From positions 1-34,523 of the forward strand of contig JBGFRZ010000060.1 of assembly GCA_041694835.1 (NCBI GenBank): 34,523 bases of DNA, in the 5' to 3' direction. How positions within the stretch are numbered: position 1 is the stretch's first letter; each line of letters opens with the position of its first letter. A program made the position numbers. Shown piece after piece: positions 12,001-22,621 of the stretch. The stretch comes from Ignavibacteria bacterium (GTDB lineage Bacteria > Elusimicrobiota > Endomicrobiia > PHAN01).

Positions 12001-15000
12001 ATTTTATCGAAGACACAAATTTATTATTTTCCTGCTTAGTCATCTGCGTTTTACGCCATGTTTTTGAATTATGCGGCTTAAATTTGAGATAAACATCGGC
12101 GATTTTTTTGGAATTGACAATTGCTGTGACTGGAAAAAGGACATCTATCTCGGTTTTGACAGGATATTGCCCGCCGAGTTCTGGATATACGGCTTCGATG
12201 ATTTTTTCTGCTTTCGGCATGTTGTTCTCCTATCGCTCACTTTTGAAGACGGAGATGTTATTCAAAGATGATGGCCGATTCTTTAAGGGGTTGCCAAAAA
12301 GTCAACATTATTCTTCGGTAACCCCTAAGCTTCCCGAAGGAATTTCGCTGCGTCTTCAGGCGCGGTCGGGTTTACATAAAATCCAGTTCCCCATTCAAAA
12401 CCCGCGACTTTCGTCAGTTTCGGCATAATCTCGATATGCCAGTGATAGTGAGGAACTCTCGGCTCTTTCAGTGGAGAGTTGTGTATTATATAGTTGTACG
12501 GCGGATTTTCAAGGACGCTGTTGAGTTTCCCGAGGCATACTTTCATTATTTGAGCAAGACTCGTTGTTTCGTGTTTTTGTATGTCCTGAAAAACCGAGTC
12601 GTGTTTTTTGGGGAGAACCCAGATTTCAAACGGGAATCTTGCGGCGAAGGGGACTATCGCCAGAAAATCCGGATTTTCTGCGAGTATCCTTTGATTCGAC
12701 ACTATTTCCTGCTTTATCATATCGCAGAAGACGCATCGTTCTTTGTAATCGAAATAGCTTTTTGCCCCGTTAATCTCTTCCCTTACCCTTTTGGGAACTA
12801 TGGGCGTTGCGATAAGCTGAGAGTGAGGATGAGAAAGCGTTGCACCGGCGGCGCCGCCTCTATTTTTAAAGAGCAAGATGTATTCAAATCTTTCGTCTTT
12901 TCTTAAATCAAGGATTCTGTCTCTGAACGACCATATTATGTCTTCGACTTGTTTGTCGTGGAGATCCGGGATTTCTTTTTTATGATCAGGGGATTCTATT
13001 ATTACTTCATGCGCCCCGACACCGTTCATTTTGTCGTACATTCCCTCCCCCGTTCTGTTTAGCGAGCCTTCGACGGCGAGCGCCGGGAATTTATTCGGAA
13101 CAACCCTTATCCACCAGTTGTTCGAATTTTTTGGATCCCTGTACGAGAGCACTTCAGGAGGCGTTAGATGTTCGTGGCCGGGGCAAAATGGGCAGGCCTG
13201 ACTCGCATGGTTTTCGGTTTCTTTTGGAAATTCACTCGGCCTTTTGCCTCTTTCCGTTGATATTATAACCCATCTTCCGGTTACGGGGTCTCTTCTGAGT
13301 TCTGGCATTTGTCTCCTCCGTTTTAAAAACAGCAAATAGCGAATAGCGAATAGCAAAAAGTAGATGGTAGAAGGGTAGAAAGGTAGAAGGTAAAAGGCGA
13401 AAGAAGTGCCTCTGTATACCGTCTACATTCTACCGTCTACCGCCTCTCAATTCTAAACTCTCAACCCTCAAACTCTTTTGAGCGGTTTCATTATATAAAA
13501 CTTGAGGAATTTTGTCAAACTATCAGTTTTTAGTATAATAAGAGCATTGAAAAACCCATCTTTTTCATTCCGAAGCGGTTTCTTGACGATTAAAACTTAC
13601 AATTTGACAGCAAAACTTCTCGACACACTCCGTCGGACACGCTGTCAAGACGATCGTTCCTTTTAATCTAAAACCGCTAATTCATTCTAAAAATCAGGGG
13701 TTTTCAACAATCTATTTCAGTGAAAATAATAAGAAGGTACGTCCTTTCGGAGTACATCTCTGCTACGTTGTTCGGCCTTGTCGTTTTTACTTTTATCCTT
13801 CTTCTGGAGCAGATATTTCTATTTGTAAATGTGATAATTACAAAAGGTGTCGGAGTTTACGATGCGTTGACGCTGTTTCTCCTTATGCTTCCCAACATAT
13901 TTTCGTTGAGCATACCGATTTCCACCCTTTTTGGAGGAATTTTAAGTTACGGGAGGCTTACCAGTGACAACGAAATCACGGCGATGAAAACAGCCGGCAT
14001 AGGTTGTTTCAGCTTTGCGCTCCCACCGATAGCGTTCAATTTTTTACTGTCGGGTTCGCTGGTATTATACAATCTTCATGCATCTCCGCAAACTTACAAA
14101 AAATTTAACGAATACTACTATGAAGTAGTGCAGAAAAAACCCACCCTTAAAATAGAGGAGAAATCAATAATTACAATAGGCAGCAGCAGGATATATTTTG
14201 AGGGGAAGGATAAGGGCGGCCGCCTTAAAAACGTAAGCATATATCAGTTCAACGACGCCGAGGGCTTGATGGTTCCATCGCTGTTAATATCGGCATCATC
14301 GGCTACGATATCTGTCCATAATTCGCACATATTGTTCCGTATGTACAGCGGCAGTATTCAGAAAACCGACATCAGACGCCCTTCCGAGATTGCATCTCTT
14401 CAATTTGTCAGATATGACATTCCGATAGCCATAAATCATTCCGTGCAGCAAACAAAATCCTTGAGGGAATATACCGCCAGCGAGCTGCTTTGCGAAATAG
14501 AGAGGTATAAAAACCAATCACTGCCATACGGGATATTTGAAACCGAATATAATCTGCGCATAGCCGTGGGCGTCGCCCCGTTTTTCTTTTCACTGATAGG
14601 AATTCCACTCGGACTGCTTGCTCACAGGGGGTCAAAGGCTATAGGATTTGCGCTTTCCACAGGTGTGATTTTCTGCTATTATATTTTTCTTGCCGTGGGG
14701 ATAAATTTTTCGGATAAAGGATATCTCGCATCAGCGTTTTCTCTTCAGATTCCGAATATGGCCGCGGCATTTTTTGCATCACTTCTTTGGAGAAAAATAA
14801 CAAGGTAATGACCAATGGAAATGAATCAAAAATGTTTGCTTGCGGGACCGCTCACCCGACGGATAACATACTTTGATTTATATCTTAAAGTTCGCTTAGC
14901 GCATCGCCTGCAAAATTTTTATATGAGTTCTTAATTTATCAAAATGGCCCCACGAAATCCAACTTTTCTTCTTAATTTGGTCCGAATTGTCTGGCTATTG

Positions 15001-21000: not shown

Positions 21001-22621
21001 CAAACGCTCCCGCTCACAAACAGATTCACATTCAATACGAATTTCAATCTTACCCAGAATCGCTCCTCCATAAATTATGAAAGGGGAAACACGGACACTT
21101 ACAATCTCAACTTCGTCGGCGACTACGAGGCTACGGCAAACTTCAGGCTTGCTGTGGGTGGCGGCTTTGGCTATCACAGAAACCTTGTGCAGAGATATGA
21201 GGACAACTATCAGATAAACATAAACTCGCGCCTTACAATTCAATTCTGATGTTTATAAAAAAAATTGTTCAAGGAGTGGCCAACTTTCTTTTTCCGATTA
21301 TATGCTCTTCCTGCGGCAATCTGATGCCTTCAGACGACAAATACAGGTTGTGCGAAAATTGCTTCAGGAGTTTAAAATTTATTTCTGACGGACTCTACTG
21401 CGTAAGATGCGGAAGATTTCTTCCGTCTGGGGGCGCACATTGCCGCAGCTGCAGAAGCGAAAAATTCCACTTTGAGTTTATTCGCTCGGCAGTTCTTTAC
21501 GAAGGCGTAGCCAGAGATCTTATACACAAATTCAAGTACAGAGGAGCGGAGTATCTTAAGCATCTTTTCGGGAAGATTCTCGCAGAAGAAGCAAAAAAGC
21601 ACGAGGAGATTGCAAATTGCGATTTTTTGCTCCCCGTTCCGCTGCACAGACTTAAAAAAATCTTGAGAGGTTACAATCAGAGCGAGCTCATCGCTTCGGT
21701 ATTGGCGAAAAATCTTGGGAAGAGCTTTTTGAAAGACGTTCTTATAAAAACAAGATATACGAGACAGCAGGCAAAACTTAAAAAGAGCGAAAGAAGAAAA
21801 AATGTACTAGACGCTTTTCGCGTCGTTAAGGATGATGCCATAAGAGGAAAAAATCTGCTTCTGATAGATGATGTGGCCACCACGGGCGCAACCATTGAGT
21901 GCTGTGCGGCTATTTTGCGACGGGCCGGGTCGGGAAAAGTATACTGCCTGACAGTGGCGCGCGATTGACCTCGTTCAGAAATTACAGCGAACTTTGCGGT
22001 TGATTTTTTTTTTATATTTTGATATCATAATTAAAATATCATAATCAAAGTAAAATTCGCAGATGGCAGATAGTGAGAAGATGAAAAGCAACTGGTGTCT
22101 GAGGAAAAAAACATTCTAAATCTCCTCGATATATGAGACCGCTGAAAGACCTCACCACAGAGGCACCAGGAACACAGAGAAAAAACTTTACCACGAAAGC
22201 ACGAAAGTTAGAAATCACGAAAAAAATAATCCCCCTATTTCCCCCTTTAATAAAGGGGGAAGCGAAGCAGGGGGATTTACAGTGACTTGTGCACTTGTGC
22301 TCTTATGCCTTGTGCACTTGTGCAGACCAAGGTCTGCAACTACAAAACTTGTGCTTTGTTGCAAAAAATTTCTTACACATTTTTTTGTGTCTTGTGTGGT
22401 AGAAGAACTTTTTCAATAATCTCATACATCGGGGATGCGACAGAATATACCTTTTAAGAGGGGTTCAGCGAGCGTTCGCCGAAAAGGCGAAAAGCGAGCG
22501 ACGAAGAAATGGGGAGATTATCTCCCCTTGTGGAGCACCGAGCGAAGGACATTTCCTTTCGAAGCGAGGCGATGTTTTAATTCGTCCCCGATAGTGAAAC
22601 ATATCGGGGATGCGACATTAG

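Follow-up and report, generated by a model that had tools for sequence, protein, structure and literature searches.

Published abstracts describe type 9 secretion (T9SS) as restricted to Bacteroidota or the FCB group and as reliant on a GldLM/GldKN motor-ring. Elusimicrobiota lie outside the FCB group, and full-text literature searches pairing Elusimicrobia names with T9SS terms found no linking paper, nor any with motor or gliding terms, among the matches listed. The available text of one study reports that motor-deleted Flavobacterium strains hold substrate-bound, stalled translocons (PMC10994853), so that a motor-less version of such a system needs explanation. In Bacteroidota, as far as the accessible parts of two further papers describe it, cargo with a C-terminal domain (CTD) of type B is linked to its own PorP/SprF barrel gene (F. 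johnsoniae, P. gingivalis), and the PorP/SprF-like shuttle is thought to receive and anchor that cargo (PMC12618676, PMC9143113).

The window considered here (the whole stretch of DNA analysed, 34,523 nt) carries an Elusimicrobiota gene for a putative outer-membrane pore that resembles SprA/Sov (PDB 6H3I, 6H3J, 8GL6, 8GL8) in its predicted giant-barrel fold, in its collinear sequence homology and in its co-occurrence with CTD-bearing proteins and PorV-family barrels. SprA/Sov sits in Bacteroidota with a T9SS, whereas no GldKLMN or PorU was found in this genome.

The pore gene, its predicted fold and its neighbours

The longest ORF of the SprA/Sov-like giant outer-membrane barrel gene (16156..21249, + strand) encodes 1,697 aa. 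Gene callers place the start at 16399, giving 1,616 aa; orthologue P0005 aligns from residue 71 of the long ORF onwards, ahead of that position, so the true start lies upstream of 16399, as the initial annotation had assumed. The translation of the 5' part (16156..16398, +) contains a hydrophobic stretch resembling a signal peptide, and heptamer tandem repeats occupy 16242-16353 (TRF).

The claim that the pore lacks a Pfam match held in our Pfam scan. Its match to the SprA/Sov equivalog TIGR04189 was likewise recovered below the curated cut-off of 200, although at 137.7 bits (E 2.6e-40) rather than the 139.8 bits first given. The best six-frame piece (53.8 bits) is an SprA N-terminal-domain-like segment at 16471..16998 (+; TIGR04189 positions 75-256), which is the most conserved stretch of the pore and is aligned by the profile with SprA residues 147-266. 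Further collinear SprA-matching stretches lie within 17617..19437 (+), at 17617-18108, 18712-19092 and 19153-19437 (TIGR04189 positions 603-783, 1182-1331 and 1387-1479, respectively). A single-sequence match to SprA in the PDB could not be repeated, since phmmer with either the 1,697-aa or the 1,616-aa form returned nothing even at E<=10; the reported link through an orthologue profile was borne out, a profile of 24 orthologues matching SprA (6H3I/6H3J) at E 3.1e-39 in three collinear stretches.

The fold was taken from two overlapping AF2 fragment models with mean pLDDT of 81.6 and 86.3. Foldseek matched both fragments to SprA chains (E 7e-55 and 1.7e-42, TM 0.56-0.59), the only strong matches, the next ones having TM below 0.25. 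VIA-align placed the fragments on SprA ranges 129-1745 and 759-2401, together approximately 129-2401 and collinear, the Z scores being 20-22 (824-993 residues) and 16-17 (871-1,013 residues). The models thus predict a giant single-chain outer-membrane barrel along the whole chain and, together with the sequence profile, support the pore as a true but compact SprA/Sov homologue. Its initial description as a reduced SprA stands in so far as it is smaller, ~1,620-1,700 aa against the 2,403 aa of SprA, through shorter inserts between the conserved stretches; the barrel is not truncated, and both ends of SprA align. The first ~130 residues of SprA, which according to the available text of PMC10994853 fold inside SkpA, have no aligned counterpart in the pore (VIA-align). 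A discontinuous insert region at 18022..19311 (+; ~residues 542-971 of the 1,616-aa form) is predicted to form a jelly-roll, CBM11/CBM30-like beta-sandwich (VIA-align Z 13-14.5, rmsd 2.5-3.3 A over ~150 residues against CBM11/CBM30 chains), and PF03425 is present in some pore orthologues. The compact pore would offer a smaller target for structural work.

The ORFs of lptF, lptG, the pore and comF all lie where they had been placed. Upstream of the pore are two LPS-export permease genes on the same strand: an lptF-like gene at 13720..14808 (+; Pfam LptF_LptG 234.5 bits; TIGR04407 155 bits, short of its cut-off of 230) and an lptG-like gene at 15022..16107 (+; LptF_LptG 212 bits; TIGR04408 176.7 bits, short of 240). 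A comF-family gene (21249..21968, +; TIGR00201 110 bits, under cut-off; Pfam DZR_2 and Pribosyltran) starts on the last position of the pore gene, overlapping its stop. Among 23 pore loci an LptF/G-family gene adjoins in 18 and comF in 12, so the synteny is genuine but weaker than the 10/10 claimed at first, and in families other than that of the window the lptF-like gene mostly has a divergent orientation. The link between lptFG and the pore is one of conserved neighbourhood only.

The window also holds an lptE-like gene (5335..5988, -; Pfam LptE 28.3 bits, cut-off 23) in the usual leuS-lptE-holA order, indicating that ordinary LPS export parts are present. Elsewhere in the genome a separate 644-aa protein (G000:C39:8504-10438) matches LptD_N at 25.7 bits and has orthologues among relatives (tblastn E 2e-64) that weakly match PF04453 (LptD). 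The idea that the pore replaces LptD was rejected because this divergent LptD candidate and an LptE exist; Pfam and NCBIfam scans of the pore gave no LptD or LptD_N match.

CTD cargo and its barrels

The initial annotation counted 20 genes with a TIGR04183 (CTD) match, 14 of them over the cut-off and all with matches ending 9-54 nt ahead of the stop codon, and each of these figures was reproduced. Six more CTD genes were found beside barrels that had appeared to be orphans, giving at least 26 CTD proteins in the genome. The 26 C-terminal domains can be aligned and have motifs in common; scanned alone, all 26 match TIGR04183 at E<=0.1 and seven also match the type-B model (TIGR04131), for which the genome holds two matches over the cut-off and four at E<1e-4. 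The CTD fold is matched by FlgD_ig as well, which is a generic Ig-like domain. The cargo includes S8 and M6 peptidases, a PLD, Kelch/BNR/PQQ propellers and fn3/FG-GAP giants, a range of predicted domains typical of secreted or surface proteins.

PorV_fam gave 29 matches in ~26 ORFs (11 ORFs over the cut-off, best 210 bits) and one further barrel was matched by PorP_SprF only, which agrees with the 27 barrels first counted. No barrel reached the cut-off of the T9SS_OM_PorV equivalog (best 99.2 vs 250 bits). In the Bacteroides thetaiotaomicron control PorV_fam also matches over its cut-off and the SprA model matches nothing; barrels alone therefore do not imply a T9SS. Four barrels match TIGR03519 (PorP/SprF) at 34-36 bits, under the cut-off of 90.55, and all four adjoin cargo with a type-B-like CTD ending; Pfam PorP_SprF (PF11751) gave matches of 38.9 and 28.2 bits over its cut-off of 22.3 and one of 21.8 bits under it. 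Many barrels have TPR, LysM, OmpA or CarboxypepD_reg tails.

PorV belongs to the FadL/TodX fold class. The paired barrels weakly match Toluene_X and UPF0164, matches shared with FadL/TodX and the Treponema UPF0164 barrels, from which they differ in adjoining CTD genes and in reaching up to 210 bits with PorV_fam. The barrel at C6:2511-3734 (Toluene_X 29.8 bits) has an HHH-motif protein before it instead of a CTD gene of its own, and looks like a plain FadL.

The pairing of cargo and barrel genes is tight. Eighteen of the original 20 CTD genes have a barrel gene no more than three ORFs away and the remaining two lie at contig ends, as had been claimed; with all CTD genes considered, 24 of 26 have a PorV- or PorP-like barrel gene within that distance, directly adjacent in 19 cases, and the other two are again at contig ends. 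Chance would yield approximately one such pairing (27 barrels among ~1,631 ORFs), which supports the CTD cargo and its paired barrels as real, far beyond chance. PorV-like barrels accompany the type-A-like CTDs and PorP/TraF-like barrels the type-B-like ones, an association that is new here. The latter arrangement is as in Bacteroidota. The former differs, since at least 15 private PorV-like barrels accompany type-A-like CTDs here, whereas one PorV serves all type-A CTDs in Bacteroidota, as stated in the accessible part of PMC12618676. Extended to type-A-like CTDs, the one-barrel-per-cargo rule would provide a natural set of cognate pairs for the study of signal recognition.

CTD similarity and barrel similarity are correlated across the pairs (Mantel rho 0.32; 2 of 5,000 permutations as high), a signal that duplication of gene pairs as units could also produce. 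For the barrel on C70 (residues 28-345) and its neighbour's CTD, complex prediction gave a score of 0.94, against 0.02 for the best of three controls; at least 98% of contacts agreed between runs, the partner pLDDT was at least 91, and the CTD was docked onto the N-terminal segment and loops of the barrel. Of 157 solved complexes 116 attain that mark, as do 2 of 215 mismatched pairs, counts that hold only roughly because own alignments were used, and the result may reflect likeness to known structures because PorV-CTD complexes are solved. The prediction supports binding between CTD and barrel.

Proposed export route and competing explanations

The gene at 16156-21249 is probably the Elusimicrobiota SprA/Sov outer-membrane translocon, compact and full-length, which exports CTD cargo to paired barrels without GldLM/GldKN; that the pore carries out this transport, with the barrels as shuttle and anchor, we infer from association. 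Surface proteins that bear a Sec signal peptide and end in a beta-sandwich of T9SS type (the CTD) would reach the periplasm, cross the outer membrane via the SprA-like pore and be handed to a FadL-fold barrel of their own encoded beside the cargo gene; the receiving barrel would be PorV-like for type-A-like CTDs and PorP/TraF-like for type-B-like CTDs. Each barrel would then hold its cargo at the cell surface by the bound CTD, so that PorU sortase and LPS attachment would not be needed, and the periplasmic TPR, LysM or OmpA tails could link many of the barrels with the wall or with partners in the inner membrane. Such a relative of SprA, compact, near-universal in another phylum and accompanied by CTD cargo yet by neither motor nor sortase, would demonstrate that the outer-membrane half is able to stand alone, with a bearing on how the T9SS originated and on the real purpose of the motor.

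It is highly improbable that the system is an ordinary T9SS with a motor, ring and sortase too divergent to detect or missing from the assembly. The genome is a draft (89 contigs, 97.2% complete), and the negative searches behind the initial annotation had, by its own account, lacked a positive control. With controls run, TIGR03513 and TIGR03517 (GldL and GldM) gave no match in the genome, nor did GldN, and the same searches found all three in both Bacteroidota controls. GldM was found in none of 151 sampled phylum genomes, 138 of them high quality, and Pfam GldM_1st in none of 13. Against a cut-off of 350, GldK gave only pieces of 38 and 34 bits in the genome; a weak FGE-sulfatase match at C6:9507-10172 was rejected as GldK, that level being found also in Bacillus, Caulobacter and Methanosarcina. 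The claimed lack of PorU was upheld in that all 20 matches to NF033707 fall in model positions 959-1092, PorU's own CTD; this model detected PorU in one of the two controls, and long models can therefore fail. Taken as a whole, these controlled searches support an apparent absence of GldKLMN and PorU.

The distribution of the pore bears on two further explanations. A single-copy orthologue occurs in 143 of the 151 phylum genomes sampled, extending the near-universality first seen in 39 of 41. A TIGR04183 match is lacking in 39 of the 143, and the pore is thus more widespread than detectable CTD cargo. A phylum-tuned CTD profile gave matches, some of them internal Ig-like repeats, in 26 of 31 genomes of a family mostly devoid of TIGR04183, two pore-bearing genomes there still having none, and in three minimal genomes the one good PorV-like barrel is encoded shortly downstream of a ~1,600-aa protein with CTD-like matches. 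Near-universality, the 39 genomes without TIGR04183 cargo and an LptF/G-family neighbour that persists across families even with differing orientation would all suit a housekeeping protein of envelope biogenesis (e.g., LPS or lipid export via LptFG) that is no route for CTD cargo, leaving the cargo-barrel pairs to work alone; so would a loss concentrated in one small-genome genus (0.6-1.4 Mb), where many envelope genes are gone too. We regard such a role as unlikely, as sequence and fold searches detect no relatives of the pore other than T9SS translocons, LPS export seems complete in its absence (the LptD_N protein and the LptE gene in the window), and the pore is kept in 104 of the 105 genomes that match TIGR04183, while seven of the eight genomes without it have no CTD match.

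It is distinctly unlikely that each cargo-barrel pair is instead a self-contained export and anchoring unit, the FadL-fold barrel releasing its cargo as in two-partner secretion and the pore serving other clients. The tight pairing, the joint divergence of the pairs and the predicted docking would fit such a unit, as would the pairs' dispersal across numerous contigs at a distance from the pore gene, which in the window adjoins no cargo or barrel gene and has lptF/G-like genes and comF as its conserved neighbours. FadL/PorV-fold barrels are narrow, and one of 310-380 residues would probably be too narrow for the folded domains of 600-2,300-aa proteins. Pore, barrels and CTD matches are also lost together in the small-genome genus, and the Bacteroidota pairs of type-B CTD and PorP/SprF still depend on the T9SS, as far as the available text of PMC12618676 goes.

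A candidate flagellar-type motor

In part of the phylum the cargo-barrel pair is adjoined by genes for a MotA/MotB stator and a membrane-anchored, rotor-like protein. A conserved operon, found in 57 of 151 phylum genomes, places a TPR-tailed PorV-like barrel beside a FliF/FliG-like fusion, MotA and two MotB genes (Pfam MotA_N, MotB_plug, FliG_M and FliG_C, some copies also having YscJ_FliF_C). In the genome with this operon no FlhA, the flagellar export gene, was detected. The operon is a candidate alternative motor, and a concrete, testable candidate energy source for the export route proposed above; it would be a functional analogue of the GldLM/PorLM motor with its GldKN ring, for which no sequence relative was found, the candidate being instead of flagellar type.

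It is tentatively suggested, as a fairly unlikely extension, that Elusimicrobiota have their own solution to powering a T9SS-like machine, in which a flagellum-derived rotor-stator, a barrel with a TPR tail, a giant CTD adhesin and the SprA-like pore would constitute a hitherto unrecognised envelope-spanning rotary apparatus that secretes or moves surface proteins (gliding). If so, such an apparatus would be present in a phylum with neither flagella nor GldLM, and the module of pore, CTD and barrel would be older than, or separable from, the Bacteroidota motor. The periplasmic TPR tail of the PorV-like barrel could serve as the coupling to the rotor-stator. The surroundings of the operon include a giant CTD adhesin of ~2,250 aa and an adjacent histidine kinase and CheY-like regulator, which may control the motor unit.

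The pore as a relative of SprA and Sov

The giant outer-membrane barrel protein encoded at 16156-21249 on the plus strand, here called the pore, matched the NCBIfam model TIGR04189 in three stretches with 137.7 bits (E 2.6e-40), below its 200-bit cut-off, and a Pfam scan returned no match. A PDB match for the single sequence (E 5.4e-15) given in the initial annotation could not be reproduced, neither start giving any phmmer match up to E 10. When 24 orthologues were combined into a profile, it matched Flavobacterium johnsoniae SprA (6H3I, 6H3J) at E 3.1e-39, in three collinear stretches on SprA residues 147-266, 699-778, and 1158-1577, so that by sequence the link to the PDB is seen with the profile only. 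In the profile alignment, the spacing between the conserved stretches is shorter in the pore than in SprA. Within the ESM Atlas the protein falls in unnamed clusters, 12-20% of whose members carry SprA_N, which added nothing new.

Two fragments of the 1,616-aa gene-caller form, residues 1-1150 and 470-1616, were modeled from 54-row alignments with mean pLDDT of 81.6 and 86.3, respectively. The strong Foldseek matches of these models were SprA chains only (E 7e-55 and 1.7e-42, TM 0.56-0.59), and all matches to other proteins had a TM below 0.25. VIA-align placed the N-terminal fragment on SprA residues 129-1745 (Z 20-22, 824-993 residues aligned) and the C-terminal fragment on residues 759-2401 (Z 16-17, 871-1,013 residues aligned), a coverage on which the pore is predicted to be a full-length yet compact version of SprA/Sov. 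The VIA-align comparison of the fragment models also places a CBM11/CBM30-like jelly roll in the middle of the pore, and their DSSP strings contain roughly three dozen long strands, a figure that is not a three-dimensional barrel count.

The gene callers begin the pore at 16399 (protein P0001). The orthologue alignment starts 11 residues upstream of that position, right after a hydrophobic stretch that in translation ends in an Ala-x-Ala-like site; together these features make a start at 16156 (the 1,697-aa ORF) or 16183, with a signal peptide, the more likely one.

One alternative would have the giant barrel stand in for LptD. PF04453 scored over its cut-off in none of 61 phylum genomes, with a model insensitive enough to match only 2 of 14 controls, suggesting that LptD is highly diverged in the phylum. 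Through three weak PF04453 matches, this genome was found to encode an orthologue of 644 aa (C39:8504-10438; locus L192:4505-6439). The protein carries an LptD_N match of 25.7 bits, gives no PF04453 match here, and is probably the LptD of the phylum; an lptE gene lies inside the window. With both a divergent LptD and an LptE present, replacement of LptD by the pore was rejected.

Cargo genes and their private barrels

Twenty matches to TIGR04183, the T9SS-type C-terminal domain (CTD) of cargo proteins, had been counted in the initial annotation, and the same 20 were recovered, 14 above the cut-off and all ending 9-54 nt before the stop codon. The CTD segment of the PorU model revealed six further CTD genes, each beside a seemingly orphan barrel. 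Shared motifs run through an alignment of the 26 C-terminal pieces, all of which match TIGR04183 individually at E ≤ 0.1; the type-B CTD model matches seven of them. On the barrel side, PorV_fam gave 29 matches in about 26 ORFs, 11 above the cut-off, and one more barrel was matched by PorP_SprF only. The barrel is the next gene downstream for 16 of the 26 CTD genes, follows after one small ORF for four and after three small ORFs for one, and lies directly upstream for three; for the remaining two, whose cargo gene is at a contig end, none was seen. About one such adjacency would be expected by chance. The small ORFs encode a response regulator, two 23S-IVS-type proteins, and an LTD protein. 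Cargo includes S8 and M6 peptidases, a PLD protein, a metallo-beta-lactamase-fold protein, Kelch/BNR/PQQ propellers, and fn3/FG-GAP giants of up to 2,278 aa, and the barrels often carry TPR, LysM, OmpA, CarboxypepD_reg, or HhH domains at their C-termini.

Cargo and barrels fall into two classes. CTDs that are type-B-like by end pattern or TIGR04131 match adjoin barrels that match PorP_SprF or TraF_2 and are weakly matched by PorV_fam; barrels beside type-A-like CTDs score 57-210 bits with PorV_fam, with three exceptions at 25-41 bits. Over 23 pairs, CTD similarity and barrel similarity were correlated (Mantel rho 0.32, a value reached in 2 of 5,000 permutations), a correlation that could also have arisen through duplication of the pairs as units. 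A complex prediction for the pair on contig C70, pairing the barrel with its neighbor's CTD, scored 0.94 against 0.02 for the best of three controls, with at least 98% of contacts shared between runs and a partner pLDDT of at least 91. The mark applied passes 116 of 157 solved complexes and lets through 2 of 215 mismatched pairs, counts that hold only roughly for this pair since its alignments were self-made from paralogues. Because structures of PorV-CTD complexes already exist, the pass may come from the predictor having memorized them; with that qualification, the prediction supports binding of the CTD to the C70 barrel.

On C66 (159-27402; L194, L032), an 8,170-aa ORF (159-24671) overlaps the start of a 915-aa CTD gene (24655-27402) by 17 nt, with a barrel gene following; both ORFs may belong to a single gene, encoding over 9,000 aa, that contains a frameshift or is translated by readthrough. 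A 720-aa chain at C48:751-2913 (L036) unites a PorV-like barrel with an internal domain of the FlgD_ig/CHU_C type and an OmpA domain at the C-terminus, and a 270-aa CTD protein is encoded upstream of it. Genes for bAvd-like four-helix bundles of the 23S-rRNA-intervening-sequence type (Pfam 110-129 bits) occur inside cargo-barrel operons (C81:7080-7433, C81:10753-11136, and C52:44954-45325), placed between cargo and barrel and between a FliG-like gene and MotA.

In one sample of 151 genomes of the phylum, the pore was found in 143 (132 of the 138 of high quality), PorV_fam at E ≤ 1e-5 in 144, and TIGR04183 in 105; 104 of these 105 have the pore and seven of the eight pore-less genomes lack a CTD match, although related genomes are non-independent and such counts overstate the support. 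Most of the 39 pore genomes without a TIGR04183 match come from a single family, in which 8 of 45 genomes are positive. When the 26 CTDs of the present genome were made into a profile, 26 of 31 members of this family gave matches, internal repeats among them, and in three of its small genomes a single good barrel lies just 3′ of a roughly 1,600-aa protein that has CTD-profile matches.

Motor, ring, and sortase, and a FliG-like/MotAB module

Two Bacteroidota genomes, a Chryseobacterium and a Flagellimonas, served as positive controls in the searches for T9SS motor, ring, and sortase genes. GldM, GldL, and GldN were each found in both controls and not here by the same searches; GldM was likewise found in none of the 151 sampled genomes, and Pfam GldM_1st in none of 13. 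GldK matched clearly in both controls, but here only in pieces of 38 and 34 bits. The sole GldK-like match, a 306-aa FGE-sulfatase-type ORF (C6:9507-10172) about 2.5 kb from an S8 subtilase cargo-barrel pair, was set aside as generic since control genomes without a T9SS are matched at the same level. PorU is represented only by matches to the CTD segment of its model, a negative weaker than those for GldM, GldL, and GldN because the model found the protein in Chryseobacterium and missed it in Flagellimonas. The absence of GldL, GldM, and PorU noted previously stands, now beside Bacteroidota controls: the known T9SS motor, ring, and sortase are absent from this genome. The initial observation as a whole proved real and its interpretation is supported. 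The set is best filed as a new variant in which a phylum other than the usual one has the outer-membrane half of a T9SS-like system, with private barrels for type-A-like as well as type-B-like cargo. We infer the function of pore, CTDs, and barrels from homology and association. Full-text searches found no paper linking Elusimicrobia to T9SS; in two papers that matched, the terms stand in passages on other subjects or among the references.

A MotA_ExbB scan of the genome led to a candidate motor, a cluster on C81 (209-13615; L033, L204) that encodes, in order, a 2,278-aa CTD cargo, a 23S-IVS-type ORF, a TPR-tailed PorV-like barrel, a protein of 543 aa containing FliG_M and FliG_C, a second 23S-IVS-type ORF, MotA (MotA_N and MotA_ExbB), and two MotB proteins (MotB_plug and OmpA). 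A second copy at C84:65862-69727 (L031) has its FliG-like gene behind a further barrel with a TPR tail. From the N-terminus on, these FliG-like proteins consist of a hydrophobic segment, a domain of some 150 aa, a membrane helix that is conserved, and then FliG_M and FliG_C. The N-terminal domain matched YscJ_FliF_C in two of five relatives scanned and in 8 of 51 homologues with precomputed Pfam matches, and by this domain make-up the protein appears to be a membrane-anchored FliF/FliG-like fusion. Neither this genome nor any of six relatives gave an FlhA match, in contrast to four flagellated controls.

Within the 151-genome sample the FliG-like protein is present in 57, with 0 of 45 and 1 of 44 in the two largest families. 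Among 23 of its loci, a barrel adjoins upstream in 14 and MotA adjoins downstream in 16. The order TPR-tailed barrel, FliG-like, MotA, MotB, MotB is kept in all five Pfam-scanned loci (of seven wider loci), all five with a HAMP histidine kinase nearby and three with a cargo of about 2,250 aa (DUF2341/fn3/BNR) directly 5′ of the barrel. All 57 genomes with the module are among the 143 with the pore; since 86 pore genomes lack it, it cannot be what powers the pore in general, and it may drive one adhesin-barrel unit. Of the Escherichia coli FliG torque residues named in PMC12505986, K264 is invariant (10 of 10 rows) and an acidic residue is kept at 288 or 289 in all nine FliG-like rows, but R281 is replaced by Gly or Asn in all nine, so that the torque interface is only partly conserved. 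Passages of that paper have no mention of such a module; nothing fitting came from a literature search on FliG-like and MotA modules outside flagella, and no Elusimicrobia paper was among those listed by a search that also covered FliG, MotA/MotB, and gliding.

Elsewhere, a lone ExbB/TolQ-type gene (C65:16247-16867, L205; MotA_ExbB 111 bits), with no adjoining ExbD or TonB partner seen, lies directly 3′ of a PorV-like barrel that is the partner of a 1,676-aa cargo.

Surroundings of the pore gene

According to ORF listing and family scans, the pore gene follows lptF-like (13720-14808) and lptG-like (15022-16107) genes on the plus strand. Upstream of these, on the minus strand, are uvrC-like, murJ, holA, lptE-like (5335-5988), leuS, GT4 glycosyltransferase, GlgE-like, and galT genes; comF (21249-21968) comes after the pore and is followed by the genes gap, pgk, and apgM and other housekeeping genes. 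Across 23 pore loci, an LptF/G-family gene adjoins in 18 and comF in 12, the former sharing the pore's strand in the family to which the window belongs and for the most part divergent in others. The genome amounts to 1.9 Mb over 89 contigs, with 97.2% completeness. The nearest relatives of both the pore and the FliG-like protein all carry the names Elusimicrobia, Elusimicrobiota, or Endomicrobiia, on which ground the genome is assigned to that phylum.

Tandem repeats of seven-base period fill intergenic and 5′ regions of the window (e.g., 793-937, 5834-5964, 7558-7591, 23682-23792, and 33773-33868), 42 of the 55 TRF rows having a period of 7, 14, or 21, and similar heptamers occur on many contigs. 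Those at 16242-16353 encode the hydrophobic N-terminal stretch of the pore, and heptamers encode a hydrophobic N-terminus in several barrel genes and in the FliG-like gene as well. Since slippage in heptamer copy number would change the reading frame, phase variation by this route is conceivable. Farther downstream, two HEAT-repeat proteins (26868-28179) are encoded 5′ of a DUF5693 gene (206 bits) that is followed by a polysaccharide pyruvyl transferase gene (together 28445-31150), a group that may constitute a cell-surface polysaccharide modification set.
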